Source: an uncultured Solirubrobacteraceae bacterium (GTDB lineage: Bacteria; Actinomycetota; Thermoleophilia; Solirubrobacterales; Solirubrobacteraceae). Taken from it: 64,000 nt of DNA. The position numbers and the translations under genes are program-made. Positions 33,638 to 54,432 of the stretch are shown piece after piece. Each line of letters opens with the position of its first letter. The first letter of the stretch is position 1. The notes under the pieces were generated by a model. It made no database searches. It was not told the origin of the DNA and saw nothing but the letters and a program-made list of their open reading frames with translations. The stretch covers positions 40,330 through 104,329 of the forward strand of contig CAVUFC010000028.1 in the NCBI GenBank assembly GCA_963740605.1. Reading direction: 5' to 3'.

Positions 33638-36059
33638 GCGGCTCGCCCCCGAGGCGCTCGGCCACGGCGGCGTCGATCTTCTCGCGCCGCTTGGCGACCT
33701 CTTCATCGGTGAGCGTGCGGTCGTTGGCCCGGAACTGCAGGCGCAGCGCCAGCGACACGCGGTCCTCGGTGGGATAGACGTCGAAGATCTCGACCGCGCG
33801 GAGCAGCGGCCCGCCCGCCTCGCGCACGGTCGCGACGACGTCGGCGGCCGCCACGTCGCGCCCGAACCACCACGCCCGGTCCTGCAACACGGCGGGGAAC
33901 GACGTCAGGTCGACGTACCGCGGCACGTACAGCGCCTCGTGCTGGATCATGCCGAGGTCGAGCTCGAACGCGGTCGCGGCCTCAAGGTCCCACGCGCGCG
34001 TGACCTGCGGGTGCAGCTCTCCGATCCAGCCGGCGGGCCGCCCGCCGATCAGCACCTGCGCGCTGCGCCCCGGGTGCAGGAACGGCTCACTTCCCGGTTC
34101 CACGGCCCACGGCACCCGCAGCGCGTCGAGCACCGCCTCGAGCACCGCCTTGGCACTGTAGAAGTCGGCCCGCGGCGGGTCACTCTCGCGCCACGTAGCC
34201 GGCCGCATCGCGCCCGTCAGCAGCGCCCCGACGTGATGGCCCTCGTCGGGGAGCGGCTCCCCGCGCTCCTCGGCCGGCGTCCGCGCGCCCGAGCGCGGCT
34301 GGTCGACGAAGATGGCGCCGATCTCGAACAGCCGAATATCACCCATCCCCCGCGCGCGGTTTCGGTTCGCGACATCCAGCAGCGAGCCGAGCAGCGTCGT
34401 GCGGAGGACCGACATGTCCTCGGACATCGGGTTGCGCAGCGCGACCACCTTGCGGCGCCAGTCGTCGGCCGGGAGCCGCAGGCGTTCGACGAAATCGGGC
34501 GCGGTGAACACCCAGCCGTTGACCTCCGACAGCCCGGCGCCGGCCAGCGTGTCCTCGAGCCGGCGGCGGAGCCGCTGCTCGGGCGTGAGCACGCCGGTGG
34601 CGCCGCGCCGCGACGGCAGCGTGGCCGGGAGTTTCTCCAGCCCCCACAGCCGCGCGACCTCCTCGATCAGGTCCGCTTCGCGGGTCACGTCGCCGCGCCG
34701 GAACGCCGGCACGGTGACCTCGAGGGCGTCGGGCGCGTCGGCGACGCCGAACTCGAGCCGGCGCAGGATGTCGGCCGCCTCGTCACGCGGGATCGCGGTG
34801 CCGAGCACGCGCTCCGTGCGCTCGTCGCGCAGCCGGATCGTCACGGGGTCGGGACCGGGCCCGCCGACGTCGATCGTGCCGCCGACGAGTTTCGCGCCGG
34901 CCAGCTCGGTCATCAGGATCGTCGCGAGGATCTGGCCGTCCATCGCCTGCTCGGGCTGCAGCTGCTTCTCGAACCGGCCCGAGGCCTCGGTGCGCAGGGC
35001 GAGCCGCGTCGACGTGCGCTGGACGTTGGGGCCGTTCCAGGTCGCCGCCTCCATCAGCACGCGCGTGGTCGTGTCGCGCACCTCGGAGCGCTCGCCGCCC
35101 ATGATCCCGCCGATCGACGTCGGGCCGTCGTCGTCGCAGATGATCACCATGTCGGCATCGAACCTGCGCTCGACGTCGTCGAGCGTGGTCATCGTCTCGC
35201 CGTCGAGCGCCCGCCGGACGATCAACCGGCCGCCGCTGACGAGGTCGTGGTCGAACGCGTGCATCGGCTGCCCGGTGGCGAGCATCACGAAGTTGGTGAT
35301 GTCGACGACGTTGTTGATCGGCCGCATGCCCGCGGCGGTCAGCCGCGCCTTCAGCCACTCCGGCGACGGGCCGAGCTTGATGTTTTCGAACAGCCGCGCG
35401 GTGAAGCGCGGGCACAGGTCGGGATCCTGGACCTCGATCGTCACGCCCGGCACGTCGCCCGGCCCGCCGAGATCGGTCGTCCACGGCGGCGGCGTGATCG
35501 GCGCGCCGGTGGCGGCGTGGACCTCGCGCGCGACGCCGTAGATGCTCAGGCAGTCGGGCCGGTTCGGCGTGATCTCGAGCTCGAGCACGTCGGTCGCGAT
35601 CGGGAGCACCTCGATCAGCGGCGTGCCCGGACGCAGCTCGGGATCGAGCACCATGATCCCGTCGTGATCGGGGCCGATCGCGACCTCGTCCTCGGCCAGG
35701 ATCATCCCCGCCGACGCGACGCCGCGCAGCTTGGCCGCCTTGAGCTTCGTGCCGTCCGGCATCACCGCGCCGGGCTCGGCGACCGCGACGATCTGCCCGG
35801 CGGCGACGTTCGGCGCGCCGCAGACGATCGTGCGCGCGTCGCCGTCGCCGACGTCGACCGTGCAGACGGTCAGCCGGTCGGCGTCCGGGTGGCGCTCGGC
35901 GGTCAGCACGCGGCCGACGAGGAAGTGCTCGAGGGCGGCGACGCCGTGGGTGTGCAGCGCCTCGACCTTCGTGCCGGTCATCGTCAGCACGTGCTCGAGC
36001 TCGCTGACGCCGATCCCGGGATCGCAGTAGTCGTGCAGCCAGAACAGCGGGACTCTCAT
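33630..36059 (-). CDS. pheT: phenylalanine--tRNA ligase subunit beta
   Basis: MRVPLFWLHDY..., tRNA-binding, B3/4, B5 and FDX-ACB pattern. ATGA overlap with pheS. Confidence 0.93.
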   Translation of the reverse strand: MRVPLFWLHDYCDPGIGVSELEHVLTMTGTKVEALHTHGVAALEHFLVGRVLTAERHPDADRLTVCTVDVGDGDARTIVCGAPNVAAGQIVAVAEPGAVMPDGTKLKAAKLRGVASAGMILAEDEVAIGPDHDGIMVLDPELRPGTPLIEVLPIATDVLELEITPNRPDCLSIYGVAREVHAATGAPITPPPWTTDLGGPGDVPGVTIEVQDPDLCPRFTARLFENIKLGPSPEWLKARLTAAGMRPINNVVDITNFVMLATGQPMHAFDHDLVSGGRLIVRRALDGETMTTLDDVERRFDADMVIICDDDGPTSIGGIMGGERSEVRDTTTRVLMEAATWNGPNVQRTSTRLALRTEASGRFEKQLQPEQAMDGQILATILMTELAGAKLVGGTIDVGGPGPDPVTIRLRDERTERVLGTAIPRDEAADILRRLEFGVADAPDALEVTVPAFRRGDVTREADLIEEVARLWGLEKLPATLPSRRGATGVLTPEQRLRRRLEDTLAGAGLSEVNGWVFTAPDFVERLRLPADDWRRKVVALRNPMSEDMSVLRTTLLGSLLDVANRNRARGMGDIRLFEIGAIFVDQPRSGARTPAEERGEPLPDEGHHVGALLTGAMRPATWRESDPPRADFYSAKAVLEAVLDALRVPWAVEPGSEPFLHPGRSAQVLIGGRPAGWIGELHPQVTRAWDLEAATAFELDLGMIQHEALYVPRYVDLTSFPAVLQDRAWWFGRDVAAADVVATVREAGGPLLRAVEIFDVYPTEDRVSLALRLQFRANDRTLTDEEVAKRREKIDAAVAERLGGEPRG

Positions 36060-37105
36060 CCGAACTGCTCCAGGAAGCGCAGGTCGTTGTCGTAGAAGAG
36101 ACGCAGGTCGGTGACGCCGTGCTTGAGCATCGCGACGCGCTCGATCCCGAGGCCGAAGGCGAAGCCCTGATGCTTCTCGGGGTCGTAGCCGCCCTCGCGC
36201 ACGTACTCGAACACGTTCGGGTCGACCTCGCCGGCGCCGAGGATCTCGATCCACGCCTCGCCCTTGCACAGCGGGCAGCGCGAGCCGTCCTTCATGAAGC
36301 CGTCGGTGCAGTTGAAGCAGGAGACGTCGCATTCGACGCTCGGCTCGGTGAAGGGGAAGAAGTGCGGGCGCAGCCGTACGCGCCGGTCCTCGCCGAAGTA
36401 CGCGCGCGCGAACGCGAGCAGCGTGCCCTGGAGGTCGCCGAGCGTGACGTCCTCGTCGACCGCGAGGCCCTCGACCTGGTTGAACTGCGGCGTGTGCGTC
36501 GCGTCGTTGTCGCGCCGGTAGGTGCGGCCCGGGACCACGACGTACAGCGGCGGCGGGAACATCTCCATCGCGCGCGTCTGCATCGGTGACGTGTGCACCC
36601 GCAGCAGCACCTCGTCGGAGATGTAGAACGTGTCCGTCGCCTGCCGCGACGGATGCGTCTCGTCGAAGTTGAGGGCGTCGAAGTTGTAGTAGGTGAGCTC
36701 GGTCTCCGGGCCCTCCATCACGCGGAACCCGAGGCCGAGGAAGATGTCCTCGATCTCGCGCCGGGTCTGGGTGAGCAGGTGGATGCGGCCGGGGGCGACG
36801 GCCGGGGAGCCGGGCAGCGTGACGTCGACGACGTCGCCGGCGAGCTTGGAGTCGAGCTCCGCGGTCGCGAGCTCGGTCTCGCGCGCGGCGATCGCGGCCT
36901 CGAGCGCCTTGCGCGCCTCGTTCGCGGCGCGGCCGACCAAGCCGCGCTCCTCGGGCGGGAGCTGGCCGACGCCGCGCAGGAGGTTCGGCAGCTCGGCCTT
37001 GCGACCCAGGAAGCGGACCCGCACGTCCTCGAGCTCGGCGGTGCCCGGGGCGTCGGCGATCGCCGCCTCTCCGGCGGCGCGCAGCTCGCTGATCCTCTCG
37101 TTCAT
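36056..37105 (-). CDS. pheS: phenylalanine--tRNA ligase subunit alpha
   Basis: HPSRQATDTFY, VVPGRTYRRD, GFAFGLGIERVAMLK. Confidence 0.93.
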   Translation of the reverse strand: MNERISELRAAGEAAIADAPGTAELEDVRVRFLGRKAELPNLLRGVGQLPPEERGLVGRAANEARKALEAAIAARETELATAELDSKLAGDVVDVTLPGSPAVAPGRIHLLTQTRREIEDIFLGLGFRVMEGPETELTYYNFDALNFDETHPSRQATDTFYISDEVLLRVHTSPMQTRAMEMFPPPLYVVVPGRTYRRDNDATHTPQFNQVEGLAVDEDVTLGDLQGTLLAFARAYFGEDRRVRLRPHFFPFTEPSVECDVSCFNCTDGFMKDGSRCPLCKGEAWIEILGAGEVDPNVFEYVREGGYDPEKHQGFAFGLGIERVAMLKHGVTDLRLFYDNDLRFLEQFG

Positions 37106-37809
37106 GGAGCGGCCATCCTACGGTTGCACTCGTACAGGGCGACGGTTGCCGCCATCGCGGCGTTCAGGGACTCGTTGGCGATCGGTATGTGCGCGACCTC
37201 GTCGCACGCCGAGAGCACCTTTGCGGGCAGACCTTCACGCTCGGCGCCGACCACGATCGTCCCCGGGACCTCGGAGATCTCGCTGAGCGGGCGGCCCGAC
37301 CGCGCGACCAGGCCGATGCGCGGGGACGGCAGGTCGGCTGGGTCGCGGACGCGCGCCACCGGCACCTCGAACAGCGCGCCCATCGACGCTCGCACGGCCT
37401 TCGGCCCGTACGGGTCGGCCGTGCCGGGCCCAAGCGCCACGCTCCCGGCCCGGAACGCCAGCGCGCTGCGCAGCACGGTGCCGACGTTGCCCGGGTCGTT
37501 GACGCCCCACAGCGCCAGGCACAGCGGCCCGACCGGCGCGGGCGCCCAGCGCTGCCCGTAGACGGCGAGCGCGCGGGTGCCCGAGCCGAGCTGGGACACG
37601 TCGGCGAGCAGGTGCGGCTTGACCTCCTCGCCGTCGAGCCCGGAGCCCTCAGCAACCAGCCGTGCCAGCGGCGCCCAGCCGGCCGCGTCGGCGGCCGCGA
37701 GCAGGTCCTCCCCCTCGGCGACGAACTCGCGCAGCTTGTCGCGCCACTTGCGACCCGCGAGCTTGCGGATCTCCTTGAGTTGGTCGTTATGGGGGCTGGA
37801 AATTGTCAA
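37102..37809 (-). CDS. TrmH/SpoU-family RNA 2'-O-methyltransferase (TsnR position)
   Basis: NDPGNVGTVLRSA, VGAEREGL, IPI...ESLNAAMAATVALYE. TTG start is uncertain. Confidence 0.8.
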   Translation of the reverse strand: MTISSPHNDQLKEIRKLAGRKWRDKLREFVAEGEDLLAAADAAGWAPLARLVAEGSGLDGEEVKPHLLADVSQLGSGTRALAVYGQRWAPAPVGPLCLALWGVNDPGNVGTVLRSALAFRAGSVALGPGTADPYGPKAVRASMGALFEVPVARVRDPADLPSPRIGLVARSGRPLSEISEVPGTIVVGAEREGLPAKVLSACDEVAHIPIANESLNAAMAATVALYECNRRMAAP

Positions 37810-37891: not shown

Positions 37892-38251
37892 TCAGGCCGC
37901 TGACGCCTCGCGGGCGCTTTCGGCGAATCGGCGGAACGTCTCGGGGTCGCGCACGGCGATGTCGGCCAGCACCTTGCGGTCGATCTCGATGCCGGCGAGC
38001 TTCATACCGTGCATGAACGTGGAGTAGCTCATCCCGTTCTGGCGCGCTGCCGCGTTGATGCGGGTGATCCACAGCCGGCGGAAATCGCGCTTGCGATTGC
38101 GGCGGTCGCGGTAGGCGTAGGCATCGGCCTTCATGACCGCTTCCTTGGCCCGCTTGTACGACGAGTTCGCCTCGCCGCGGAAGCCCTTGGCCCGCTCGAG
38201 GACGGCGCGGCGCTTCTTGCGCGCGTGGACGGAGCGCTTGACGCGGGTCAT
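37892..38251 (-). CDS. rplT: 50S ribosomal protein L20
   Basis: [26 protein letters not shown]... Confidence 0.95.
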
Positions 38252-38451
38252 CGCCCGTTCCCTCCGAGCAGCTTGGTGACCACCTTGCGATCGGCCTTGG
38301 AGATGTCGCGGTCCAGCCCGAACGAGCGCTTGCGCTTCGGCGACTTCTTCTCGAGGAAGTGGCTCGAGAAGGCGTGGCGGGCCTTGAGCTTGCCCGTCCC
38401 GGTCTTCTTGAAGCGCTTCTTCGCGCCCGAGTGCGACTTCATCTTCGGCAT
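38248..38451 (-). CDS. rpmI: 50S ribosomal protein L35
   Basis: [27 protein letters not shown]... ATGA overlap with rplT. Confidence 0.93.
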
Positions 38452-38462
38452 ATCGGGCGCCG

Positions 38463-38468
38463 AGTATA
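38463..38468 (-). promoter_or_regulatory. candidate -10 hexamer TATACT 11 nt upstream of the rpmI ATG (near-leaderless transcript)
   Basis: Minus strand ...GGCTCTCTATACTCGGCGCCCGAT-ATG. No Shine-Dalgarno sequence in between. Confidence 0.25.
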
Positions 38469-38595
38469 GAGAGCCGGTGTCCACGGCCCGCCTGAACCGT
38501 GCCGTGACTTTCGATCACCGACAGCAGAGTTCTGCCTACCGCTCGCCTAAATGGCAGGTGTGGCCTAGACTCCTCGAGGGGACCCCGCGATCAAG

Positions 38596-38850
38596 GTGCC
38601 CCCGCTGGCGATCGGCTCGCGGCTGGTGCGCAAGAAACTCGGATTTCGCACACTGCTCGACGTGATCCCGCTCGACGCATCGCTGGTGAAGGGCTCGCAC
38701 GGCCGCATCCCCGACGATCCGGCCAAGGGCCCGCTGCTGATGACGCGCCATCCCGACCTGCTGGGCGACGGCGAGGTCGCCGCCACCGACGTGCACGACG
38801 TGATCCTCCGCCACCACGGCGTGCCGGTGCGGGAGGTGGCCGCCCGGTGA
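38596..38850 (+). pseudogene. C-terminal remnant of an alkaline-phosphatase-superfamily (nucleotide pyrophosphatase/phosphodiesterase-like) gene
   Basis: 84-aa ORF. FRTLLDVIPLDASLVKGSHGRIPDDP resembles the extreme C-terminus of ~450-aa AP-family proteins. No upstream coding sequence for the catalytic domain. Confidence 0.4.
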
Positions 38851-39845
38851 CGACGCTCGGCCGCAAGGCCGACCACCTGCGGATCGCCGCGCGGCCCGAT
38901 GTCGAGCACACGGGCAGCACCGGCTTCGCGGCGCTGCGTCTGCGGCACCGCGCGCTGCCCGAGCGCGACCTCGACGAGGTGTCGCTGGAGACGACGCTGC
39001 TCGGCAAGGAGCTGGCCGCCCCGCTGGTCGTGTCGGCGATGACCGGCGGCACCGACGAGGCGGCGGAGATCAACGCCCGGCTGGCACGCGCGGCCTGCGA
39101 GCAAGGGCTCGCGCTGGTGCTCGGATCCGGTCGCGCGCTGCTCGACGACCCGGAGCTGCTCCCGACCTATCGCAGCGGCGACCGCCCTCCACTGCTGCTC
39201 GGCAACCTCGGCGCGGCGCAGGTGCGCCTGGCGGACGCGCCGACGCGGGCGGAGCGGCTGATCGAGCTGCTCGACGCCGACGGGCTGACGATCCACCTGA
39301 ACCCGATCCAGGAAGCCGTGCAGCCCGAGGGCGAGCCGCGCTTTGTGGGCGTCGCGGCCGGGATCGCCGCCGTCGCCGCGCACCTGGCACCGCTGCCGGT
39401 GCTGGTCAAGGAGGTCGGCTTCGGGATGGACGCGGCCGACGTGATGCTGCTGCGCGACGCCGGCGTCGCGGCGATCGACGTCGCCGGTGCCGGCGGCACC
39501 AACTGGGCGCTCGTCGAGGGTCACCGTGACGAGCGCGCCGGCGACGTCGCGGCGGCGTTCTCCGACTGGGGCGTACCCACCGCCACCGCGCTGGCCGAAG
39601 CCCACGCCGCCGCGCCCGACCTGCCGCTGATCGCCTCCGGCGGCCTGCGTGACGGTGTCGACGCCGCCAAGGCGCTCGCGCTGGGAGCGCGCGCCGCCGG
39701 GCTCGCGCGCCCGTTCCTGCTCGCCGCGCGGGCCGACCGCACGTCCGAGACCGCGGCGACTCTGGTCCGCCAGCTGCGCATCGCAGTCTGGGCCGTGGGC
39801 GCGGGCAGCCCCCCCGAGCTGTCACCGGCGCATCTGCGCATGTAG
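38847..39845 (+). CDS. fni: type 2 (FMN-dependent) isopentenyl-diphosphate delta-isomerase
   Basis: KADHLRIA..., PLVVSAMTGG, IHLNPIQEAVQPEG, VKEVGFGM, ASGGLRDGVD. Confidence 0.85.
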   Translation: MTTLGRKADHLRIAARPDVEHTGSTGFAALRLRHRALPERDLDEVSLETTLLGKELAAPLVVSAMTGGTDEAAEINARLARAACEQGLALVLGSGRALLDDPELLPTYRSGDRPPLLLGNLGAAQVRLADAPTRAERLIELLDADGLTIHLNPIQEAVQPEGEPRFVGVAAGIAAVAAHLAPLPVLVKEVGFGMDAADVMLLRDAGVAAIDVAGAGGTNWALVEGHRDERAGDVAAAFSDWGVPTATALAEAHAAAPDLPLIASGGLRDGVDAAKALALGARAAGLARPFLLAARADRTSETAATLVRQLRIAVWAVGAGSPPELSPAHLRM

Positions 39846-39856
39846 CGTCCGCGCGC

Positions 39857-40759
39857 ATGGGAGAGCGAGCGCTGCAGACACTGCTGGACGGCGGGTCCTT
39901 CTTCGAGAGCCCGCGCTGGCACGAGGGACGCTGGTGGGTGTCGGACTTCTACAACGAGCGCGTGCTCGCCGTGGACACGGACGGGCGCGCCGAAGACGTC
40001 ATGATCATCCCCGAGCGGCCGTCGGGCCTTGGCTGGATGCCGGACGGGTCGATGCTCGTGGTCTCGATGCGCGACCACAAGATCCTGCGGCGGTCGCCGG
40101 ACGGCGCGGTGAGCGAGCACGCCGACGTCAGCGAGCACTGCGGCGGGGTGCTCAACGACATGGTCGTCGACTCGCGCGGCCGCGCGTACGTGGGCAACTT
40201 CGGCTTCGACCTGATGAACGGCGGTGACCCGGTCCCGGCGAACCTCGTCCGCGTCGACCCGGACGGGAGCGCCACGGTCGTGGCCGAGGAGATGCTGTTC
40301 CCGAACGGCTCGGTGGTCACGCCGGACGGCCGGACGCTGATCGTCGGCGAGACCGCCGGCGCTCGCTACACGGCGTTCACGATCGCCGACGACGGGTCGC
40401 TGACCGAGCGGCGGATCTGGGCCCAGGTCGCCGAGACGCCGCCGATCACGACGCTCCAGGAGACGCTCGGAAAGCTCAAGTTCGGCCCGGACGGCTGCGG
40501 GCTCGACGCCGAGGAGCACATCTGGTCGGCCGACGAGGTCGGCGCCCGCTGCGTGCGCCTCGCGCCCGGCGGCGAGATCGTCGAGGAGATCCGCATGCCC
40601 GAAGGGCTCGACGTGTTCGCTTGCATGCTCGGCGGCGACGACGGCCGCACGCTGCTGATGTGCGCCGCGCCGGACTTCCTCGAGCACAACCGCATCGGCG
40701 CCACCGACGCCGTCCTGCTCACGACGACGGTCGACGTCCCGCACGCCGGGTTGCCGTAA
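39857..40759 (+). CDS. SMP-30/gluconolactonase/LRE-family beta-propeller protein
   Basis: ESPRWHEGRWWVSDF, NDMVVDSRGRAYVGNFGFD, FPNGSVVTPDGRTLIVGET. Confidence 0.8.
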   Translation: MGERALQTLLDGGSFFESPRWHEGRWWVSDFYNERVLAVDTDGRAEDVMIIPERPSGLGWMPDGSMLVVSMRDHKILRRSPDGAVSEHADVSEHCGGVLNDMVVDSRGRAYVGNFGFDLMNGGDPVPANLVRVDPDGSATVVAEEMLFPNGSVVTPDGRTLIVGETAGARYTAFTIADDGSLTERRIWAQVAETPPITTLQETLGKLKFGPDGCGLDAEEHIWSADEVGARCVRLAPGGEIVEEIRMPEGLDVFACMLGGDDGRTLLMCAAPDFLEHNRIGATDAVLLTTTVDVPHAGLP

Positions 40760-40804
40760 CCGGATTGAAGGCGGCGTGCAGGCGGCGTGGCCGAGTCTGC
40801 GGCC

Positions 40805-41233
40805 ATGACCTCCTTCACTCCCCGCATCATCACCATCGCCCTCGCGATCCTTGCCTTCGCGGCCCCCGTGGCCGGCGCGGCCCCGATCCGCGACGGCAGC
40901 CCGCCCATCACGCGTCCCAATCAGCGCGCGCACGTCTACGTCATCCCGGCGTCGGCGTTCAAGCAGCAGCCGGCGACCACGGCGGCGGCGCACCAGGCGA
41001 AGCCGTCCGTCTCCGGCACCGGCGACCGCTCGGCGCACGTCTACGTGATCCCGGCGTCGGCGTTCAAGCAGCAGCCGGCGACCACGGTGGCGACGCACCA
41101 CGCGAAGCCGTCCGTCTCCGGCGACAGCGACCCCTCGCCGCTCGTCTACATCTTGCCGAGCCTCGCGCTCATCGCGATGTTCGGTGCCGCGGCCGTGTAC
41201 GTCCGCGGCTCGCGCCAGCCCGCGCAGATCTGA
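40805..41233 (+). CDS. small secreted/anchored repeat protein, paralogue A
   Basis: Signal peptide MTSFTPRIITIALAILAFAAPVAGA, 2 x 35-aa repeat, C-terminal PSPLVYILPSLALIAMFGAAAVYVRGSR. Confidence 0.6.
   Translation: MTSFTPRIITIALAILAFAAPVAGAAPIRDGSPPITRPNQRAHVYVIPASAFKQQPATTAAAHQAKPSVSGTGDRSAHVYVIPASAFKQQPATTVATHHAKPSVSGDSDPSPLVYILPSLALIAMFGAAAVYVRGSRQPAQI
40928..41137. repeat. 2 x 105-bp tandem coding repeat
   Basis: AHVYVIPASAFKQQPATT(A/V)A(A/T)H(Q/H)AKPSVSG... encoded twice, at 40928-41032 and 41033-41137. Confidence 0.85.
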
Positions 41234-41294
41234 CGCTCCGGCGAATCCCGGCGCGGTCTCCGCCGCGCCGGGGTCGCCCGGGGGTACGCTCCGC

Positions 41295-44132
41295 GTGAGC
41301 GTGCTCGACATCGGGATCCTGGGACCGTTGGAGGTCCGGCACGAGGGTCGTGCCCTGGATCTCGGCGGGCCACGGGGGCGGACGCTGCTCGGCGTGCTGG
41401 TCGTGCGCGGCAGGATGAGCGCCGACGAGCTGATCGAGGCGCTGTGGGGCGACGATGCGCCGCCGACCGCACCAAAGGCGCTGCAGGTGACCGTGTCGCG
41501 GCTGCGCCGGGCGCTCGGGCCCGCGGCGGACCGGCTCGAGACGACGGGCGACGGCTACCGCCTCGGCATCGAGCCCGGAGAGCTCGACGCCGACCGGTTC
41601 GAGCAGGCCTGCCGACAGGGCATCGAGCTGCCGCCACGCGAGGCCGCGGTCGTGTTACGGGAGGCGCTCGCGCTGTGGCGCGGGCCCGCGCTCGCCGACC
41701 AGCGCTACGAGGCGTGGGCGCAGCCGGAGATCCGCCGGCTCGAAGAACTGCGAGGGCTCGCCATCGAGGAGCGCGTGAAGGCCGACCTCGCGCTCGGCGA
41801 GTCCGCACGTCTTGTCGGTGAGCTGGAGGCGCTGGTGGCCGAGCATCCGCACCGCGAGCGCCTGCGCGCGCAGCAGATGCTCGCGCTGTACCGCTCCGGC
41901 CGCCATGCCGACGCGCTCGCCGCCTACCGTGACGCCCGCGCCGCGTTCGGCGAGCTGGGCCTCGAGCCCGGCCCGGACCTGCGCGCGCTCGAGCAGGCGA
42001 TCCTCACGCATGACCCGTCGCTGGCGGCGCCGGCGGTCACCGCGCCTGGGATCCCGCCGGCCCCTCCCACGCCCACGTTCGGCCGCGACGATGACCTGCG
42101 CGACGTCCTCGCAGGGCTCGACGGCACACGGCTGCTCACGCTCACCGGGCCCGGTGGCGTCGGCAAGACCCGGCTCGCGATCGAGGTCGCGCGCGCGGCC
42201 GACGGCCGCTTCGTCTCGCTGGCCTCGACCTCCGATGCCGAACGGATCCCGTCGCTGATCTGCGACGCTCTCGCGGTCGCCCGCGTCCCGGGCGAGACCG
42301 ACCGTGAGGCGCTCGACCGCGCGCTCGGCCGCGGATCGCTGCTGCTCGTACTCGACAACCTCGAGCACCTCGCGGACGCCCCGCCGCTGCTGGCCGAGCT
42401 GCTCGACACCCACCCGAATCTCCGACTCCTCGCGACGAGCCGCCAGCCGATCGGCATCCGCGCCGAGCGGCTGTCCCCCGTGCCGCCGCTCGTACCCGGC
42501 GCGGACGCCGCGTTGTTTGCGGACCGCGCCCGCGCGCACGACCCCGCCTTCGCCATCGACGACGACAACGCCGCCGCGGTCACGACGATCTGCGAGCGGC
42601 TCGCGGGGATGCCACTGGCGATCGAGCTCGCCGCCGCACGGCTCGGCGTGCTCTCACCCGCCGACCTCGCCGACCGGCTGTCCGCGGCCCTGGGCGTCCT
42701 CGACCGCGGCCCGCACGACGCGCCGCCGCGGCAACGGACGCTGCGCGCGACGCTCGACTGGAGCTACGACCTGCTCGACGACGAAGAGCAGCGGGCGTTC
42801 ATCGCGCTCGGGGTCTTCGCCGGCGGTTGCGAGCTCGATGCGGCCGAGGCGGTGACGGGCGCCGGTCTCGACGTCCTCGAGAGCCTCGTCGCGAAGAGCC
42901 TCGTGACGGCCCGCGCGGGCCGGCTGGGAATGCTCGAGCCCGTCCGCCAGTACGCCGCCGAACGGCTGGCCGCGAGCCCGGATCTCGACGCGATCCACGC
43001 CCGCCATCTCGGCCACTACCTGGCGCTCGCGAGGCGCGCCGAGCCCGACATCTTCACGCGCGGCCGGTCCTCCCCACTCCTCCCGGTCCTTCATCGCGAG
43101 CGAGACAACCTCGACGTCGCGTTCGAACGCGCGATCATCGCGCGGCCGATCGACGCCCTCGCGCTGGCGGGCGAGCTCTCGCCGTACGGCTGGAACGCGC
43201 ACGCCGCCGAGCAGGTCGGTCGCCGGTGCGAGCGCGCCCTGAACGCCGCCGGCGAGGACGCCCCGGCGGAGCTCCGCGCCCGCGCACTGCTCGCCGCCGG
43301 CAACAACAACGCGGCATACATGACCGATCCGGAGTTCGTCTCCGCCGCGCTCGCCCTCTTCCGCGAGCTCGGCGACGAGCGCTGGATCGTGCGGAGCCTG
43401 CTGGCACTGAGCAACGCCCGCAGCGTCCGCGGCGACTACGACGAGGGACGGCGCGCCGCCGAGGAGGCGTTCGCGATCGCGCGTCGGCTCGAAGACCCCG
43501 GGCTGATCGCCGAGGCGGTCGGTCAGGTCGCGCTCTCGATCGACGGGGTCGAAGAGGCGTTGCCGCTCATCGTCGAGGCCGCAGACCGGTGCCGCAGCGT
43601 CGGAGCTGTGGCACGAGCCGCGGGGCTGCTGTCGACCGCCGGGATGGCCGCGCTGCGCGAGGACGCGTACGAGCGATCCGAGCAGTTGCAGCGCGACGCG
43701 CTCGAATTCGCGCTCGAGACCGGCGATCCCAACGTCATCGCGCTCGTGCAGGGAAACCTCGGGCTCGCGGCCTTGCTCGGCGGGCGCCTCGAAGCGGCGC
43801 GTCCGGCATTCCGGGACGAGCTCGTGATGGCGCACGAACACGCGCTCGCGATGTTCTACATGGAAGGGCTGCTCGGGCTCGCCGCGCTCGCCGCGGCGGA
43901 CGGGAACGACCATTTCGCCGCAGTTCTGCACGGCGCCGCCTGGGAGCTGAACGACCGCCCGATCTACCCCTCAGAGGCACCCGTGTACGAGCGCGTCGAG
44001 CAGCGTTTCATCGCCCCCGCTCGCGGGCGGCTCGGCGAGCCGGCGTGGGCGGCAGCGCAGGCCGAGGGCCGCGCGATGACGGTCGCGGATGCGGTGGGTT
44101 ACGCGCTGCGACCGGCGCTGTTACCGCACTGA
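41295..44132 (+). CDS. SARP/AfsR-type regulator (OmpR-like wHTH + BTAD + NB-ARC ATPase + TPR)
   Basis: ILGPLEVRHEGRALDLGGPRGRTLLGVLV, LWRGPALAD, Walker A GPGGVGKTRLA, LLVLDNLEH, long helical C-terminus. Confidence 0.85.
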   Translation: MSVLDIGILGPLEVRHEGRALDLGGPRGRTLLGVLVVRGRMSADELIEALWGDDAPPTAPKALQVTVSRLRRALGPAADRLETTGDGYRLGIEPGELDADRFEQACRQGIELPPREAAVVLREALALWRGPALADQRYEAWAQPEIRRLEELRGLAIEERVKADLALGESARLVGELEALVAEHPHRERLRAQQMLALYRSGRHADALAAYRDARAAFGELGLEPGPDLRALEQAILTHDPSLAAPAVTAPGIPPAPPTPTFGRDDDLRDVLAGLDGTRLLTLTGPGGVGKTRLAIEVARAADGRFVSLASTSDAERIPSLICDALAVARVPGETDREALDRALGRGSLLLVLDNLEHLADAPPLLAELLDTHPNLRLLATSRQPIGIRAERLSPVPPLVPGADAALFADRARAHDPAFAIDDDNAAAVTTICERLAGMPLAIELAAARLGVLSPADLADRLSAALGVLDRGPHDAPPRQRTLRATLDWSYDLLDDEEQRAFIALGVFAGGCELDAAEAVTGAGLDVLESLVAKSLVTARAGRLGMLEPVRQYAAERLAASPDLDAIHARHLGHYLALARRAEPDIFTRGRSSPLLPVLHRERDNLDVAFERAIIARPIDALALAGELSPYGWNAHAAEQVGRRCERALNAAGEDAPAELRARALLAAGNNNAAYMTDPEFVSAALALFRELGDERWIVRSLLALSNARSVRGDYDEGRRAAEEAFAIARRLEDPGLIAEAVGQVALSIDGVEEALPLIVEAADRCRSVGAVARAAGLLSTAGMAALREDAYERSEQLQRDALEFALETGDPNVIALVQGNLGLAALLGGRLEAARPAFRDELVMAHEHALAMFYMEGLLGLAALAAADGNDHFAAVLHGAAWELNDRPIYPSEAPVYERVEQRFIAPARGRLGEPAWAAAQAEGRAMTVADAVGYALRPALLPH

Positions 44133-44169
44133 AAGCGTGCGGTTACCGCCGTCTCGGAGGCTGCCGTCC

Positions 44170-44655
44170 ATGACCTCCACCACCCGCATCATCACCACCG
44201 CCCTCGCGATGCTCGCGATCGCCGTCCCCGCGGCGAGCGCGATGCCCATGTACGAGCACGGCGACACCACCGCCACCGGCCGGAGCAGCGCCGACATCCG
44301 CACGTCCAGCCTCGCCGGCACCACGTCGGCGCCGGTGCAGGACCTGCGCAACGCCGACGAGCGTGCCCCGCAGCCGGCCGAGCCGACGCAGGACCTCCGC
44401 AACCCGGACAACCGCGCCCCCGGCGTCGAGGCCGCCCCGGCCCCGACCGACACGAGCCGCGTCCCGGTCCAGCAGTCGCCTTACTCGCCGGCGCAGCTCA
44501 AGCCGATCTCGACCCCGCAGGCGGCCCCCGTCGCCGATGACGGACCGTCCCCGTTCGTCTACATCATCCCGAGCGTCGTGCTGATCGCACTGCTCGGCGC
44601 GGGATTCGCGTTCATCAAGACCACCTCGCGGCCCGTCCGCCGGTCGGCTGCCTGA
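44170..44655 (+). CDS. small secreted/anchored repeat protein, paralogue B
   Basis: MTSTTRIITTALAMLAIAVPAASA, QDLRN(A/P)D(E/N)RAP x2, C-terminal PSPFVYIIPSVVLIALLGAGFAFIKTTSRPVRR. Confidence 0.6.
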   Translation: MTSTTRIITTALAMLAIAVPAASAMPMYEHGDTTATGRSSADIRTSSLAGTTSAPVQDLRNADERAPQPAEPTQDLRNPDNRAPGVEAAPAPTDTSRVPVQQSPYSPAQLKPISTPQAAPVADDGPSPFVYIIPSVVLIALLGAGFAFIKTTSRPVRRSAA

Positions 44656-44682
44656 CAGACAGCGATCGCTAGCGTCAGCAGG

Positions 44683-45453
44683 GTGAAGGTCGAGCTGGGA
44701 GGCGTGCCGGAAACCCTGCTGTGGACGCTGTACCACCGTTCGATCGAAGCGCGGCGGCCCGATGCGATCCTCACGGATCCTCGGGCCGTCGCGCTCGTCG
44801 ACGAGATCGACTATGCGTTCGCGGCGCGCTTCGGCGGCGGCGAGGGCGCGCTCTCGCAGGGGCAGGCACTGCGCGTCCGGCGGTTCGACGGCGAGGTGCG
44901 GCGCTTCCTCTCCCAGCATCCCGACGGCGCCGTCGTCGCGCTCGGCGAAGGGCTCGAGACCCAGTTCTGGCGGGTCGACAACGGCCGCGTGTCCTGGATC
45001 ACCGTCGATGTGCCGGAGGCGATCGAGGTCCGCGAGCGGCTGCTCGAACCAGGCGAACGCCAGACCCTGATCGCCGGCTCCGCACTCGACGAGGACTGGA
45101 TGGACGAGGTCGACGCCTCACGCGGCCTGCTCATCACCGCCCAGGGCCTGCTCATGTACTTCAACTTCGACGACGTCGAGCGACTCGTCGCCGACTGCCG
45201 GCAGCGGTTCCCGGGCGCCACGCTCGTGTTCGACGCGATGCCGGGCTGGCTCAGCAAGGCGAGCCAGCGGGGCAAGCTCGGCGACCCGGATCACTACCAG
45301 CCGCCGGCCTGGCACTGGGGCATGGACTACGACAAGCGGCGCCGGCTCGGCGCCGAACGGTTGCGGCTCCCACGCGGACGGGGGGTCTTCTTCGGCTACG
45401 TCGCCCCGCTGCTCCGGCTCGGCCTCGTCCAGATCTTCCGCGTGCGCCTGTAG
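44683..45453 (+). CDS. class I SAM-dependent methyltransferase, LCM/TcmP-like O-methyltransferase family
   Basis: ETLLWTLYHRSIEARRPDAILTDPRAVALV, VVALGEGLETQFWR, ITAQGLLMYF. Confidence 0.75.
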   Translation: MKVELGGVPETLLWTLYHRSIEARRPDAILTDPRAVALVDEIDYAFAARFGGGEGALSQGQALRVRRFDGEVRRFLSQHPDGAVVALGEGLETQFWRVDNGRVSWITVDVPEAIEVRERLLEPGERQTLIAGSALDEDWMDEVDASRGLLITAQGLLMYFNFDDVERLVADCRQRFPGATLVFDAMPGWLSKASQRGKLGDPDHYQPPAWHWGMDYDKRRRLGAERLRLPRGRGVFFGYVAPLLRLGLVQIFRVRL

Positions 45454-45506
45454 CGGACGTCCACGCCGCCCCGCAGCGCGATGGCTGCGGAGCGGGGGAC
45501 TTGGCT

Positions 45507-46088
45507 TTAAGAGGCCGCTGCGGCCGGCTTGTCGCCGGTACCGGTCTTCTGCGGCGCCAGCATCATCGTCATGTTGCGGCCGTCCTGCTGTGGCCGCTGC
45601 TCGATCACCGCGAGGTCGCCGAGGTCCTCCGCGAGCCGGTTGAGAATCATCTCACCGCGCTCGGGGTGGGCCATCTCGCGGCCGCGGAACATGATCGTCA
45701 CCTTGACCTTGTCGCGCCCCTTGAGGAAGCGCTCGACATGGCCCTTCTTGGTGTCGTAGTCGTGCTGGGCGATCTTCGGCCGGAACTTGATCTCGCGGAC
45801 GTTGATCTGCTGCTGATGCTTGCGCGCGGCCTTCTGCTTCTGGTTCTGCTCGTACTTGTACTTCGAGTAGTCCAGGATGCGGCACACGGGCGGCTTGGCA
45901 TCGGGAGCCACCTCGACGAGGTCGAGGTCGCGGTCCTGCGCCTGGCGCAGGGCCTCTTGGGTGCGCATGATCCCCACCTGCTGTCCGTTCTCGTCGATGA
46001 GCCGGACCTCGGGAACGCGGATGCGCTCATTGATCCGGGTGGGGTCGCGCTCAGGCGGCTGCCGGTCGAAACGTCTTGGGACCGGCAC
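45507..46088 (-). CDS. infC: translation initiation factor IF-3 (start codon uncertain)
   Basis: [22 protein letters not shown]..., [16 protein letters not shown]. Confidence 0.9.
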
Positions 46089-46176: not shown

Positions 46177-47649
46177 GTGGCGGGCATTCATGATGAGTTG
46201 CAGGCGATCCTCGACGCGACGATGGACGTTGTCGCCGTGTTCGATTCCGAGCGCCGCTTCCAGTTCGTCAACGATGCGGCCTGCCGGTTCTACGGCCGCA
46301 CGCGCGAGCAGCTGCTGCGTTCGCGGCTCGACGATCTGATCGGCACGGAGCGCGCCGAGGCCGACTGGGCAAGCTTTCTTGAGCCCGAGCGCATCGCCCA
46401 GGGCATGCTCGAGCACGTCTGGGACGGCGAGCAGGACGGCGACCGGCGCGTGCTCGAGGTCCGCTCGCAGCCGGAGTTCATCCCCGGCCGCCACCTGTTC
46501 GTGCTGCGTGACATCACCGAGCGCCGCCGGCTCGAGGACCAGCTCCGGCAGGCGCAGAAGATGGAGGCCGTCGGCCAGCTCGCCGGCGGTGTCGCGCACG
46601 ACTTCAACAACCTGCTGACCGTGATCGGCGGGTACAGCGAGCTCGCGCGGCGGCGGATCGGCGCCGGCCCGGGCGGCAACGAGCTGCTCGAGGTCGAGCG
46701 CGCCGCCGAGCGCGCCACCCAGCTCACCCGCCAGCTGCTCGCGTTCTCCCGCCAGCAGGTGCTCGACCCGCATCCGCTCGACCTCGGCGAGGTCGCCGCC
46801 TCGCTGCTGCCGATGCTGCGGCGGCTGATCGGTGAGGACATCGAGATCGCGATGCTCGCGGCGCCCGGCCTTCCCGCGGTGCTCGCCGACCGCTCACAGA
46901 TCGAGCAGGTGGTGCTCAACCTCTCGGTCAACGGCCGCGACGCGATGCCGACCGGCGGCACGCTCACGATCGAGACGCGGCTGGTCGAGGACCGCGTGGC
47001 GCTGATCGTCACCGACACCGGCGTCGGCATGACGTCCGAGACGCTCGAGCACATCTTCGAGCCGTTCTTCACGACCAAGACCGTCGGCAAGGGCACCGGG
47101 CTCGGCCTGGCGACCGTGCACGGGATCGTCAACCAGTCGGGCGGCGAGGTCCTCGTGTACTCCGAGCCGGGGCTCGGCACGAGCTTCAAGGTCTACCTGC
47201 CGGTGTCGGGAGCGGTGCCCGAGCCGCCCGCGCCCGCCACGCCGGACGAGGACGAGTTGCGCGGCGACGAGACCGTCCTCCTGTGCGAGGACGAGGAAGG
47301 CGTGCGGCACCTGATCGAGGCCGTGCTGACCAGCCACGGGTACCGCGTCCTGGCGGCGTCCGGGCCGCTGCAGGCGCTGGAGATCGCAGCCGAGCGCCCG
47401 ATCGACGTGCTCGTCTCCGACGTGATCATGCCCGACCTGTCAGGCCCCGAGCTGGCGCGGCGGATGGAGAGCCTGCGCCCGGGCGTGCGGACGCTGTTCG
47501 TCTCCGGCTACACCGCCGAGACCGTGCGCGGCCGGGGCCGGCTCCCCGAGGACAGTGCCTTCCTCGAGAAGCCGTTCCACCAGCTCACCCTGCTGCGCGC
47601 GATTCGCGCGCTGATCGCTCAACCGCGCTCGCGCAACGAGGCCAGGTAG
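46177..47649 (+). CDS. hybrid sensor histidine kinase / response regulator (PAS-HisKA-HATPase-REC)
   Basis: GGVAHDFNNLLTVI H-box, NLSVNGRDAM, DTGVGM, GTGLGLATV, REC with DVLVSDVIMPDLSG. Confidence 0.88.
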   Translation: MAGIHDELQAILDATMDVVAVFDSERRFQFVNDAACRFYGRTREQLLRSRLDDLIGTERAEADWASFLEPERIAQGMLEHVWDGEQDGDRRVLEVRSQPEFIPGRHLFVLRDITERRRLEDQLRQAQKMEAVGQLAGGVAHDFNNLLTVIGGYSELARRRIGAGPGGNELLEVERAAERATQLTRQLLAFSRQQVLDPHPLDLGEVAASLLPMLRRLIGEDIEIAMLAAPGLPAVLADRSQIEQVVLNLSVNGRDAMPTGGTLTIETRLVEDRVALIVTDTGVGMTSETLEHIFEPFFTTKTVGKGTGLGLATVHGIVNQSGGEVLVYSEPGLGTSFKVYLPVSGAVPEPPAPATPDEDELRGDETVLLCEDEEGVRHLIEAVLTSHGYRVLAASGPLQALEIAAERPIDVLVSDVIMPDLSGPELARRMESLRPGVRTLFVSGYTAETVRGRGRLPEDSAFLEKPFHQLTLLRAIRALIAQPRSRNEAR

Positions 47650-48564
47650 TCGTAGCTGCGCTCGGCGTCGCCGAACGAGCCGCCCGCGGCCTGCGCCGCG
47701 TCGTCGTTCTCCATGACGAAGTGGTGCTTGCTCGTGTCGATGCCGCAGAAGAACGGCTCGTACGGCAGGTCGCCCGCGCCGACGTCGGTCATCGTCCAGC
47801 CCGAGTGCGGGCCGCCGTTGAAGAGCCCGTCCTTGACGTGGAAGAGCGGGTAGCGCTCCGGGTGGTCCCAGACATAGTCGTTGGGCCGGAAGCCCGGGAA
47901 CCGGCTCTGACCGACGTACGCCCAGAAGATGTCCATCTCCAGGAACACGAGCCGCGGGTCCGTCTCCTGGAACAGCACGTCGTCAGCCGCGTGCCGCCCA
48001 CGACCTCGAACTCGCTGTCGTGGTTGTGCTGGTAGAAGCGCAGCCCGCGCTTGCGCGCCGCGGTGGCGAACATGTTGAAGTCCTCGGCGGCCTGCTTGTA
48101 GCCGTCGACGGTCTGGCTGTTGCCCCCGGCCGGGCTCGACGCCGTGCCGACGTACTTCATGCCGATCTCCTCGGCGTCGTCGAGCACCTGCTCGAGATCC
48201 GTGCGGAACGTCCCGTAGCCGACGTGGCTGCCCGCGGCTGAGAGGCGGTACTTGCGCAGCAGCCCGCCAGCTCCTGGTTGCTCCAGCGCCGGCCCTGGGC
48301 GTTGTAGCCCGCGAACTCGACCTCTTTGTAGCCGATCCCCGCGAGCCGCTTGAACACCTCTGCGAACCCGAGCGTGTTCACCTGGTCGCCGACCGTGTAG
48401 AGCTGGATGCCGATCCGGCTCTTCGGCAGCAGCCGGCTCCGCTCGTGATGATGGCGGTGCCGCCCGTGAGCGGACGCCGACCACGGCGTCAGTGCGCTTG
48501 CTGCGGCCGTTCCCGCCGCCGCGCCGATCAAGCCGCGGCGACTCAACGTGGGCTTGTCACCCAT
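47619..48564 (-). pseudogene. Tat-signal sugar phosphate isomerase/epimerase (xylose-isomerase-like TIM barrel) with two frameshifts
   Basis: The protein is readable only by joining three frames: MGDKPTLSRRGLIGAAAG...WSNQELAG | LLRKYRLSAAGSHVGY...EVVGGTRL | DDVLFQETDPRLVFLEMDIFW...LRERG. Breaks lie near 48262 and 47985. Confidence 0.7.
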
Positions 48565-50656: not shown

Positions 50657-51868
50657 TCAGTCGCCGGGCATGGTTCGAACCTCTCTGATGCTGAGCGGGG
50701 CGAGGATCGAGGCGAACAGGACGATCGCGGCGATCCACAGCGCCTCGTGGATGCCGATCGCCACCGCGATCGGGCCCCAGATGATCAGGCCCAGGGGCCG
50801 GAACGCGAGCGCGCCGAACCAGTCGTAGGCGCTCACGCGCGACAGCGACTCGGGCGGCACGCGGCGCTGCAGGGTCGACTCCCAGATCGAGCCGCCGAGC
50901 ATCATCCCCGCGCCGGCCAGCAGCGCGCCGAACGCGACGAGCGGCGCCGGCGCTCCTGCGGCGAGCATCGCCAGCGGCGCGGCGAACATCGAGAACGCGA
51001 CGGTGGCGAGCACGAGCGGCCGGCGCGGCCGCACCCGGATGCCGGCGACCGCGCCCGCGAACGCGCCGACGCCCATCGCGCCGAGGATCACGCCCCAGAC
51101 CGCGGCGCCGCCGAGATCGGCCTCGGCCACCACCGGCCCGAGCGAGCTCCACGCGCCCCACAGCACGTTCCCGATCGAGGCGGAGAGCACGATGCTCCAC
51201 ACCCACTTGAGCGAGCGGAACGCGCCCCAGCCGTCCCTGAGGTCCTGGATGAACGAGCTCGCCTCGCGCCGGACGTGTGGCGGGAGCTGCAGCCCGGTCA
51301 GGAGGGCGGCGCTGACGCCGAACGAAGCGGCGTCGATCGCCAGCGCGTAGCCGGCGCCGGCCGCGGCCACCAGCCCGCCCGCGAGCACGGGCCCGGCGAT
51401 CTCCCCGCCCGCGATCGCGGTGGCTCTGAGCCCGTTGGCCTGCTGCAGGCGGTCGGAGCTGACAACGGCGGGCATCATGCCGATCGAGGCGGGCTCGAAG
51501 AAGCCGGTGGCGGCGCCGGTCAGGCCGGACAGCACGGCGATCGCCCAGATCGCCGGCTCGCCGGTGATCAGCAGCAGGGCGAGGATGCCCTGGGTCGCGA
51601 GCCGCGAGAGGTCGGCCGCAACCATCACCGACCGGCGTGGCAGCCGGTCCGCCACGACGCCGCCGATCAGCAGCGAGGCGACGAGCGGCAGCGTGCGCGC
51701 CGCGAGCACGATGCCGATGTCGGATGCGCTGCCGCCGAGGTGGATGACCGCGAAGGCGAGCGCGATGTTGACCATCCGGTCGCCGAGGACGGACACGGCG
51801 TACGCGCCGAACAGCAGCCGGAAGTCCCGCTGCCCCAGTACGGCGAGGCTGTCCGGGAGGCGAGGCAC
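50657..51868 (-). CDS. MFS transporter
   Basis: 12 hydrophobic segments; FRLLFGAYAVSVLGDRM; GGVVADRLPRR loop. Confidence 0.85.
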   Translation of the reverse strand: MPRLPDSLAVLGQRDFRLLFGAYAVSVLGDRMVNIALAFAVIHLGGSASDIGIVLAARTLPLVASLLIGGVVADRLPRRSVMVAADLSRLATQGILALLLITGEPAIWAIAVLSGLTGAATGFFEPASIGMMPAVVSSDRLQQANGLRATAIAGGEIAGPVLAGGLVAAAGAGYALAIDAASFGVSAALLTGLQLPPHVRREASSFIQDLRDGWGAFRSLKWVWSIVLSASIGNVLWGAWSSLGPVVAEADLGGAAVWGVILGAMGVGAFAGAVAGIRVRPRRPLVLATVAFSMFAAPLAMLAAGAPAPLVAFGALLAGAGMMLGGSIWESTLQRRVPPESLSRVSAYDWFGALAFRPLGLIIWGPIAVAIGIHEALWIAAIVLFASILAPLSIREVRTMPGD

Positions 51869-54422: not shown

Positions 54423-54432
54423 GGTCGCGCTC

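Follow-up and report, generated by a model that had tools for sequence, protein, structure and literature searches.

In Escherichia coli, the genes thrS, infC, rpmI, and rplT are arranged in this order, rplT (ribosomal protein L20) is translationally coupled to rpmI (L35), and rpmI-rplT can be expressed independently of infC (initiation factor IF3) from promoters which lie inside infC. The translational L20 operator of E. coli is located at the infC/rpmI junction; it occurs only in Gammaproteobacteria (PMC3616713). In Bacillus subtilis, infC, rpmI, and rplT also follow each other in this order with L20 as the expected regulator; the L20 leader (Rfam RF00558) is located upstream of infC, and all three genes are transcribed from one promoter under L20-controlled attenuation (PMC1865079). 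The window analyzed here is a stretch of 64,000 nucleotides (nt) from an uncultured Solirubrobacteraceae bacterium (assembly GCA_963740605.1, contig CAVUFC010000028.1, positions 40,330 to 104,329). It shares the gene order with both systems, and with E. coli also the predicted coupling of rplT to rpmI and the predicted expression of both independently of infC. It differs from E. coli in that infC and rpmI lie 7 kb apart and no L20 operator is detectable, and from B. subtilis in that no such leader was found and rpmI-rplT is physically detached from infC. The reading favored here, with a rough probability of 0.72, is that rpmI-rplT is an autonomous transcription unit, that the junction upstream of it has been filled recurrently, and that the window carries the decayed remnant of an island with an ebo gene cluster at this site.

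The Split infC-rpmI-rplT Cluster

Genes were called by their G+C content at third codon positions (GC3) together with family searches using Pfam and NCBIfam/TIGRFAM profiles. The window has a G+C content of 72%, and its InfC is 96% identical to that of uncultured Solirubrobacteraceae metagenome-assembled genomes (MAGs). On the minus strand the backbone has the order thrS-infC-(gap)-rpmI-rplT-spoU-pheS-pheT:

48626-50593, minus strand: thrS, upstream member of the backbone, 60-94% identical (tblastn) in 75 loci
45507-46088, minus strand: infC (IF3), GTG start, TIGR00168 with 231 bits, IF3_N and IF3_C domains
38248-38451, minus strand: rpmI (L35), ATG start giving MPKMK, TIGR00001 with 70.9 bits
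37892-38251, minus strand: rplT (L20), ATGA overlap with the rpmI stop, GGAGG Shine-Dalgarno (SD) sequence within rpmI
37102-37809, minus strand: spoU/rlmB-like methyltransferase gene, PF00588, downstream backbone
36056-37105, minus strand: pheS, downstream backbone, followed by pheT

The start of rpmI was set by an alignment of 75 loci and by an in-frame TAG upstream of it in L002 (labels such as L001, L002, and L081 denote loci or contigs of relatives which were compared with the window). From infC (45507) to the rpmI ATG (38451) the distance is 7,055 bp, and coordinates, gene calls, and family matches agree with the initial annotation in that seven open reading frames (ORFs) on the opposite strand separate the two genes. 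Whereas the canonical adjacent infC-rpmI-rplT operon was found in 47 related loci with gaps of at most 354 nt, it is not present in the window. Owing to the ATGA overlap and the SD sequence inside rpmI, the translational coupling of L35 and L20 is predicted to be retained. An L20 protein identical to that of the window is encoded on 21 other contigs, and the synteny of spoU and pheS is kept in 64-69 loci, with gaps never exceeding 1 kb.

A Conserved Putative Promoter Element Upstream of rpmI

Leaderless or short-leader mRNAs of Mycobacterium, Streptomyces, and Corynebacterium have a TANNNT -10 element immediately before the start codon and lack an SD sequence. The rpmI gene of the window resembles these, as a -10-only promoter is predicted a few nucleotides from its start, an SD sequence is missing, and this layout is common in the genome. 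It differs in its spacing, which is constrained to 10-12 nt rather than to the ~6-8 nt of the model genera. The TATACT hexamer reported by the initial annotation 11 nt before the ATG is located at 38468-38463 as read on the minus strand, and no GGAG-like motif is present between it and the ATG:

38463-38468, minus strand: TATACT, predicted -10 hexamer of the rpmI-rplT promoter, 11 nt before the ATG, no SD sequence

The alignment upstream of the rpmI ATG comprised 75 sequences, among them three outgroup loci (from Gaiellales and their relatives). In 63 of the 72 ingroup (Solirubrobacterales) loci, a -10-like hexamer was found whose end lies 10-15 nt from the ATG. Among the 63 hexamer-bearing sequences as counted with the window, the distance is 10-12 nt in 56, and the hexamer reads TTTACT in 25, CATAAT in 19, TATACT in 8, and CATACT in 7, with others in 4. 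It is preceded by TGn in 52 of them; TGn is absent from all eight TATACT sequences, whose hexamer is nearer to the consensus. The information content is ~1-2.8 bits per position in TGn and the hexamer and ~0 further upstream, and nothing outside this block is conserved. An SD-like motif was found at rpmI in only two ingroup loci, and the three outgroup loci carry GGAG and no hexamer.

Judged from this conservation, rpmI-rplT very probably has its own promoter across the whole order Solirubrobacterales. The own promoter had also been proposed by the initial annotation, there as one forced by the insertion. In the hexamer-bearing loci, the distance from the infC stop to the ATG varies between 11 nt and 9.5 kb. 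Because the element is also present where the infC stop is located only 11-120 nt upstream (overlapping it in 13 loci), the autonomous promoter probably predates the insertions and would permit them, by which cause and effect would be reversed.

With a -10 hexamer within ~12 nt of the start and no SD sequence, rpmI has the layout of a leaderless or short-leader gene, and a 5′-untranslated region (5′-UTR) of ~0-5 nt is predicted. The near-leaderless mRNA proposed initially finds good support in the comparison, with the refinement that the 11-nt spacing suggests a leader of 3-5 nt rather than a strictly leaderless mRNA. A literature search found no transcription start site maps for any member of the Thermoleophilia. 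At ~15 of 49 genes of the window, including thrS, the sequence TAnnnT precedes the start codon by 7-12 nt and an SD sequence is missing, compared with ~0.8 genes expected by chance, and leaderless-type initiation seems to be common in this genome. This layout also occurs at the first genes of units at 6257-8184, 10084-10641, 19053-22586, 26503-27804, 48626-50593, 50657-51868, 53346-55014, and 63058-63783.

Since the predicted 5′-UTR comprises at most ~5 nt, there would be no room for an L20-binding leader at rpmI of the window. An Rfam search of 33-52 kb at E ≤ 1 gave no match, hence no known leader of L20 or another ribosomal protein, and with only 11 nt from hexamer to ATG no L20-dependent autoregulatory leader was recognized. 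The region 38452-38600 folds no better than shuffled sequences (z ~0). The initial annotation had regarded the classic coupling of L35/L20 synthesis to infC as lost; such a coupling is not demonstrable for this lineage, the classic mechanisms are specific to particular lineages, and the elements of E. coli and B. subtilis are undetectable.

In five loci, the same CATAAT is located 64-67 nt upstream of the ATG, and a covarying nested hairpin is inserted after the hexamer. Two more loci carry an expanded version of this hairpin (up to ~100 nt). A covariance model of the hairpin leader also matches loci with a short leader, aligning to both flanks while the hairpin is missing. As the hexamer is kept although it is displaced from the ATG, it behaves as a promoter would and not as a ribosome-binding element, which would have to stay close to the ATG.

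The nested hairpin itself, which spans 55-100 nt between CATAAT and ATG and in which 6 of 19 pairs covary, was located at L021 4603-4690, L027 10807-10891, L047 12089-12173, L070 10803-10888, L071 10776-10861, L023 12013-12142, and L049 10926-11056. Hairpin-only matches were found elsewhere at L021 6113-6161, L027 12439-12483, and L036 8013-8057. The structured leader was considered as a new L20 operator; it covaries, yet hairpin-only copies exist elsewhere in the same genomes, and a dispersed palindromic repeat is at least as probable. In L052 (~12180-12293), a 39-nt duplicate of the 5′ coding end of rpmI (ATGCCCAAGATGAAGACGCAC...) is located ~100 nt upstream of the real rpmI ATG and is followed by a GC-rich hairpin, as if an insertion into the start region of rpmI had left its footprint there.

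The infC-rpmI Junction Across the Order

For the comparison of this junction, 80 InfC-anchored loci were retrieved. Gaps were measured from the true infC stop codon, because InfC carries long low-complexity tails. In Solirubrobacterales (L004-L077) these acidic tails follow IF3_C, are rich in Ala/Glu/Asp/Pro, and comprise ~30-230 amino acids; they were judged to be genuine coding sequence (G+C content of 0.82/0.63/0.84 at the first, second, and third codon positions). The C-terminal tail of the window InfC (45507-45548) has just 13 amino acids.

The distance from the infC stop to the rpmI ATG is bimodal, with at most 354 nt in 47 loci, many of these gaps being 11-120 nt, and at least 1.08 kb in 24. 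Beyond these 71 loci, the gap exceeds 10 kb in L001 and L003 and amounts to 7 kb in the window. Five junctions of the backbone were compared using the gap from the end of the InfC match and not from the infC stop; the infC-rpmI junction varies far more than its neighbors:

infC-rpmI junction: gap of more than 1 kb in 24 of 71 loci, plus L001 and L003 (more than 10 kb)
thrS-infC junction: gap of more than 1 kb in 7 of 75 loci
rpmI-rplT junction: gap of more than 1 kb in 0 loci
rplT-spoU junction: gap of more than 1 kb in 0 loci
spoU-pheS junction: gap of more than 1 kb in 0 loci

The families found as cargo between infC and rpmI are unrelated between lineages. In the Conexibacter clade, a GH3 glycosidase is encoded co-directionally with the ribosomal genes; the other cargo comprises a PAS-GGDEF protein, PhoX, an FTR1 permease next to an ORF of 360 amino acids, a LuxR-type STAND regulator of 999 amino acids, a class-I methyltransferase, MMPL and ankyrin genes, and the ebo island. 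Conexibacter arvalis DSM 23288 has the GH3 cargo together with TTTACT, and Conexibacter sp. S30A1 has a short gap. In a neighbor-joining tree of four proteins, short gaps are found in the basal and most other branches and long gaps in ~11 separate lineages.

As far as the sampled loci indicate, the interruption is neither unique to the genome of the window nor ancestral or universal; the site is used recurrently and was filled independently many times, which is ordinary genome plasticity. The initial annotation had named an interruption that is universal in the order and native in composition as the opposite case. The first half does not apply, since the interruption is found with different cargo in ~1/3 of the sampled species; the composition is indeed native. 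Chromosomal hotspots are similar in that unrelated accessory genes accumulate at one core-gene junction; here, gains and losses turn over even among strains with identical L20. Unlike at the usual hotspots, the flanks are formed here by a usually intact operon of translation genes, and an integrase or tRNA anchor is missing.

A Decayed ebo Island in the Gap

The ebo cluster has been defined previously (PMC5133447; PMC6282210). It has been connected to a prenylated cyclitol, to the export of a scytonemin precursor, and, in a 2026 preprint, to the biosynthesis of thallusin (PMC5133447; PMC6282210; bioRxiv 10.64898/2026.05.21.724671). Next to rpmI of the window, the following traces of such a cluster were identified:

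38452-38580: native eboD/rpmI intergenic spacer, retained intact, 129 bp
38566-38571, plus strand: TAGACT, predicted -10 hexamer of the former eboD (ebo operon) promoter, now ahead of eboF′-fni
38580-38582: deletion junction with 3-nt GGA microhomology, at which eboF codon ~394 now meets the site of the eboD start codon
38581-38850, plus strand: eboF′ stub of ~90 codons, 3′ remnant of the ebo phosphodiesterase gene, pseudogene fragment

The identities given to the gap genes by the initial annotation were borne out, and the ORF described there as an AP-family stub could be resolved further as the 3′ end of eboF. It is 89-93% identical to the C-terminus of a PF01663 phosphodiesterase of 478 amino acids, which is intact in L002. 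The stub was called as an ORF of 84 amino acids without a Pfam hit of its own; its GTG at 38596 is fortuitous, and the homology to eboF already starts upstream at 38581. In L002, the PF01663 gene is followed by genes for a UbiA prenyltransferase (best NCBIfam match EboC, NF035940, 115 bits, below the cutoff), EboE, a TatD-like hydrolase, a 100-amino-acid ORF, and a 3-dehydroquinate (DHQ)-synthase-like cyclase. EboE of L002 and L082 matches NF035939 with 406 bits (cutoff 250), and both loci hold an ebo cluster with genes for EboE and for EboC-like, TatD-like, DHQ-synthase-like, and PF01663 proteins. L002, L081, and L082 carry eboD-A-B-E-C-F beside rpmI, whereas of eboA-F the window keeps only the 3′ end of eboF (38581-38850). 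The eboD-type DHQ-synthase-like cyclase is located at 17690-19060 in L002 and at 8433-9656 in L082 (PRK06203, 567 bits). The ebo cluster of the Thermoleophilia includes eboD, although the Actinomycetota-type loci are described as lacking it (10.64898/2026.05.21.724671). In addition, fni and the SMP-30/gluconolactonase/LRE-like (SGL) gene are appended.

On the contigs with identical L20, eboD divergently adjoins rpmI in five of the ten places examined (L081, L082, L084, L085, and L089), and the spacers upstream of rpmI in L087 and L088 match that of L085. For the 129-bp spacer of the window, the identity with the corresponding eboD-rpmI spacer amounts to 92-94% in L081 and L082 and to 91% in L084. 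A 106-bp unique filler beside rpmI had been considered as well and was rejected, as this sequence is the native eboD-rpmI spacer. Compared with L081 and L082, two BLAST blocks abut and overlap at 38580-38582; absent from the window is L082 4358-9668, which is ~5.3 kb comprising the 5′ part of eboF, eboC, eboE, eboB, eboA, and eboD. With the independent MAG L001, the window is colinear from 52000 down to 38580.

In L082, TAGACT is located 10 nt before the eboD ATG, and in the window this former ebo promoter would now drive fni. In L083 (2750-3800), which also has an identical L20, a separate deletion puts the GTG of fni 9 nt after the old eboD TAGACT, and this region lies only 11 nt from the TATACT of rpmI. 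The ebo genes appear to have been lost at least twice while fni stayed under the putative ebo promoter. L002 has lost lcm except for a 55-bp remnant, the SARP gene, and the SGL gene.

Because of the eboF scar and the full ebo clusters beside rpmI in relatives with identical L20, the 7 kb can be read as the decayed remnant of a ~12-kb island which once held a complete ebo cluster, and comparison of the relatives places this island in rapid flux even at the species level. The earlier view of the 7 kb as one intact insert cannot be maintained, as the stub is the scar of a deletion.

Proposed Course of Events and Alternative Explanations

Between the convergent stop codons of infC and lcm, the following structure was identified:

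45469-45498: GC-rich hairpin, candidate bidirectional terminator without U-tract

The 71-nt stretch 45445-45515, in which it lies, folds with -41 kcal/mol (z = -5.1), and none of 200 shuffled sequences was as stable. Its function as a bidirectional terminator is plausible; the hairpin is strong but lineage-specific.

In the proposed course of events, rpmI-rplT of the Solirubrobacterales would be transcribed autonomously from an extended -10 promoter ~11 nt before the ATG, consisting of TGn followed by TTTACT, CATAAT, or CATACT, or of TATACT in the clade of the window. The mRNA would be leaderless or carry a very short leader without an SD sequence, and L20 would be translationally coupled to L35. 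Because the promoter would predate any insertion, the DNA between the infC stop and the rpmI promoter would be free to expand. The lineage of the window would then have gained a ~12-kb island reading away from rpmI, with the order lcm-small B-SARP-small A-SGL-fni-eboF-C-E-B-A-D. Subsequently, the strain of the window would have lost eboD through most of eboF by a microhomology-mediated deletion of 5.3 kb, which would have left the 3′ stub of eboF and put fni directly behind the old ebo promoter TAGACT. Transcripts of infC probably end at the strong hairpin that this gene has in common with the convergent lcm.

Several points weigh against this course of events. No -35 signal is conserved in the upstream alignment, and a generic sigma-70 scan found no promoter, which is uninformative because the scan requires a -35 element that these promoters lack. 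The 11-nt distance between hexamer and ATG exceeds the 6-8 nt expected for a start at the A of the ATG. In 13 loci of the CATAAT clade, the hexamer contains the infC stop as its TAA, located 11-16 nt from the ATG, and the InfC tails end in ..VS*; termination-reinitiation coupling could operate there as well. A terminator hairpin after infC shared by the whole order was rejected, with z < -2 in only 8 of 49 loci. The RNA data consist of unitigs of a multi-species soil metatranscriptome with 88% likeness, covering only the conserved coding part of rpmI/rplT; the tree is coarse and built on four proteins only, and the proposed causal link between promoter autonomy and tolerance of insertions is a correlation.

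Of the other explanations, the least improbable, although still unlikely, is that the hexamer is a translational element, either the context of the infC stop for reinitiation or an A/U-rich landing site for ribosomes, and that rpmI is expressed from the infC transcript, for which the window would need read-through or another promoter. The infC stop inside the hexamer of the 13 CATAAT-clade loci, the missing conserved -35 element, and a spacing that is long for strict leaderless initiation speak in its favor. However, TTTACT and TATACT hold no stop codon, and in these loci the infC stop is located between 31 nt and 9.5 kb away; TGn, the hallmark of extended -10 promoters, is part of the conserved block, the hexamer is kept in five loci despite a 55-nt hairpin before the ATG, two more loci carrying the expanded one (up to ~100 nt), and TAnnnT occurs at the same spacing at many unrelated first genes in the window. 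A functionally intact operon, in which infC transcripts would extend antisense across the whole 7 kb of cargo and thereby supply rpmI-rplT, is very improbable. A canonical U-tract terminator is indeed missing after infC, but the hairpin of -41 kcal/mol (z = -5.1) directly follows its stop, transcription would proceed head-on for 7 kb against at least three plus-strand units with -10 hexamers of their own, and the conserved rpmI promoter makes read-through unnecessary.

It is also improbable that the 7 kb are a recently acquired mobile genomic island which forced the use of a fortuitous promoter. In favor of this, the seven genes are accessory in function and all run opposite to the ribosomal genes, horizontal transfer of ebo clusters is known (PMC5133447), and the content differs even between genomes with identical L20. 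However, the hallmarks of such an island were not found: no tRNA gene is present in the 64-kb window, none of the seven gap ORFs matched an integrase, recombinase, or transposase family in the Pfam search, and no direct repeats bracket the insert, which extends the initial observation of borders without integrase, transposase, or tRNA. GC3 (0.93 vs. 0.91) and codon usage (leave-one-out score, p = 0.84) of the insert are indistinguishable from those of the flanks. Native GC3 and codon usage together with the lack of mobility genes argue against a recent foreign island, and an old residence or an exchange among close relatives would fit. Moreover, the island is colinear in other species-level genomes with 76-95% protein identity, and the hexamer is conserved in species without insert and is therefore not fortuitous. 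Finally, hardly any weight can be given to a chimera of assembly or binning, which might be suspected as the nearest relatives are MAGs, so that the window itself probably stems from a metagenome assembly, and as some related contigs show frameshifts of the kind that long-read assembly produces. In four independent soil-metagenome runs, contigs cross rplT/rpmI, the spacer, and the stub without a single difference, and colinearity was found with L001 on the infC side and with L081, L082, and L084 on the rpmI side; the split is not an assembly artefact. The autonomous rpmI-rplT unit at a recurrently filled junction remains the preferred explanation.

Genes Inside the Gap and at the thrS-infC Junction

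The seven plus-strand ORFs of the gap span 38596-45453 and have a GC3 of 0.90-0.96. Downstream of the eboF′ stub, the following six genes were identified:

38847-39845, plus strand: fni, type 2 isopentenyl-diphosphate isomerase, TIGR02151 with 337.5 bits (cutoff 281.3)
39857-40759, plus strand: SGL beta-propeller protein, PF08450 with 148 bits, 94% identical in L001
40805-41233, plus strand: small protein A, repeat families D1-D3, 52% identical to an L001 ORF
41295-44132, plus strand: SARP-family regulator with winged helix-turn-helix (wHTH) and BTAD domains, NB-ARC-like ATPase, and TPR, PF03704 with 135 bits
44170-44655, plus strand: small protein B, repeat families D1 and D3, 58% identical to an L002 ORF
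44683-45453, plus strand: lcm, LCM/TIGR00027-type S-adenosylmethionine-dependent methyltransferase, PF04072 with 33.6 bits, 76% identical in L001

The match of fni to its equivalog family covers residues 6-326 of 332. Its start overlaps the stop of the stub (GTGA), and a GGAGG SD sequence is located at 38832-38836. The SGL gene and lcm belong to the genes with the TAnnnT layout and carry TAGCGT 8 nt before the ATG and 7 nt before the GTG, respectively. For the genes in between, the likely refined starts are 40805 (small protein A), ~41295 (SARP gene), and 44170 (small protein B).

The regulator has the N-terminal OmpR-type wHTH and the BTAD of a SARP (Trans_reg_C 26.3 bits, BTAD 134.7 bits), followed by AAA_22 and TPR_12 domains. 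With 198 bits it stays far under the cutoff of 1430 of the AfsR equivalog NF053617, by which it is classified as a large SARP but not as AfsR itself. The center of the gene (42970-43854) shows no DNA alignment to L001, the flanks being 82-90% and the protein 58-59% identical overall, which suggests localized rapid divergence or recombination in the NB-ARC/TPR part.

The small proteins A and B, for which no family match was found in Pfam and NCBIfam profile searches, are paralogs flanking the SARP gene, each with a signal peptide, a C-terminal hydrophobic anchor, and a basic tail. Small protein A contains an internal tandem duplication of 105 bp (40928-41137, 92% identical).

A second, smaller interruption of the backbone is found in the window between thrS and infC:

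46177-47649, plus strand: hybrid PAS-histidine kinase/receiver gene with NCBIfam histidine-kinase matches, filling the thrS-infC junction

This junction (46177-47978) also holds a minus-strand ORF of 119 amino acids without family hit. Conservation of both filler genes extends to L001 and L002; in most relatives the junction measures only ~120 nt.

Significance for the Solirubrobacterales

The feature described here amounts to a variant, specific to its lineage, of the usual dynamics of operons and islands. It offers a natural example of how a highly conserved cluster comes apart once the downstream genes own a promoter, whereupon the junction becomes neutral ground that collects accessory genes. 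Regarding annotation, the stub is to be recorded as an eboF pseudogene fragment, and fni together with the SGL gene as what remains of an ebo-type meroterpenoid cluster and not as an independent module.

A more far-reaching reading is put forward tentatively and holds somewhat less than even odds: L35 and L20 might have been self-promoted ancestrally, from an mRNA lacking an SD sequence and nearly lacking a leader and hence without room for an L20 operator, the junction might be an order-wide landing site that works without integrase and whose cargo turned over at least ~10 times, and the balance of L20 and L35 might be achieved otherwise or be absent. This raises the question of how the synthesis of both proteins is balanced without any known L20 operator. 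For the abundant and poorly studied Thermoleophilia of soils, the prediction is that a unit of ribosomal-protein genes uses one specific promoter and gives a nearly leaderless mRNA. Worth recording are the putative order-wide promoter without SD sequence at a fixed distance from rpmI and the junction which was recurrently filled without an integrase.

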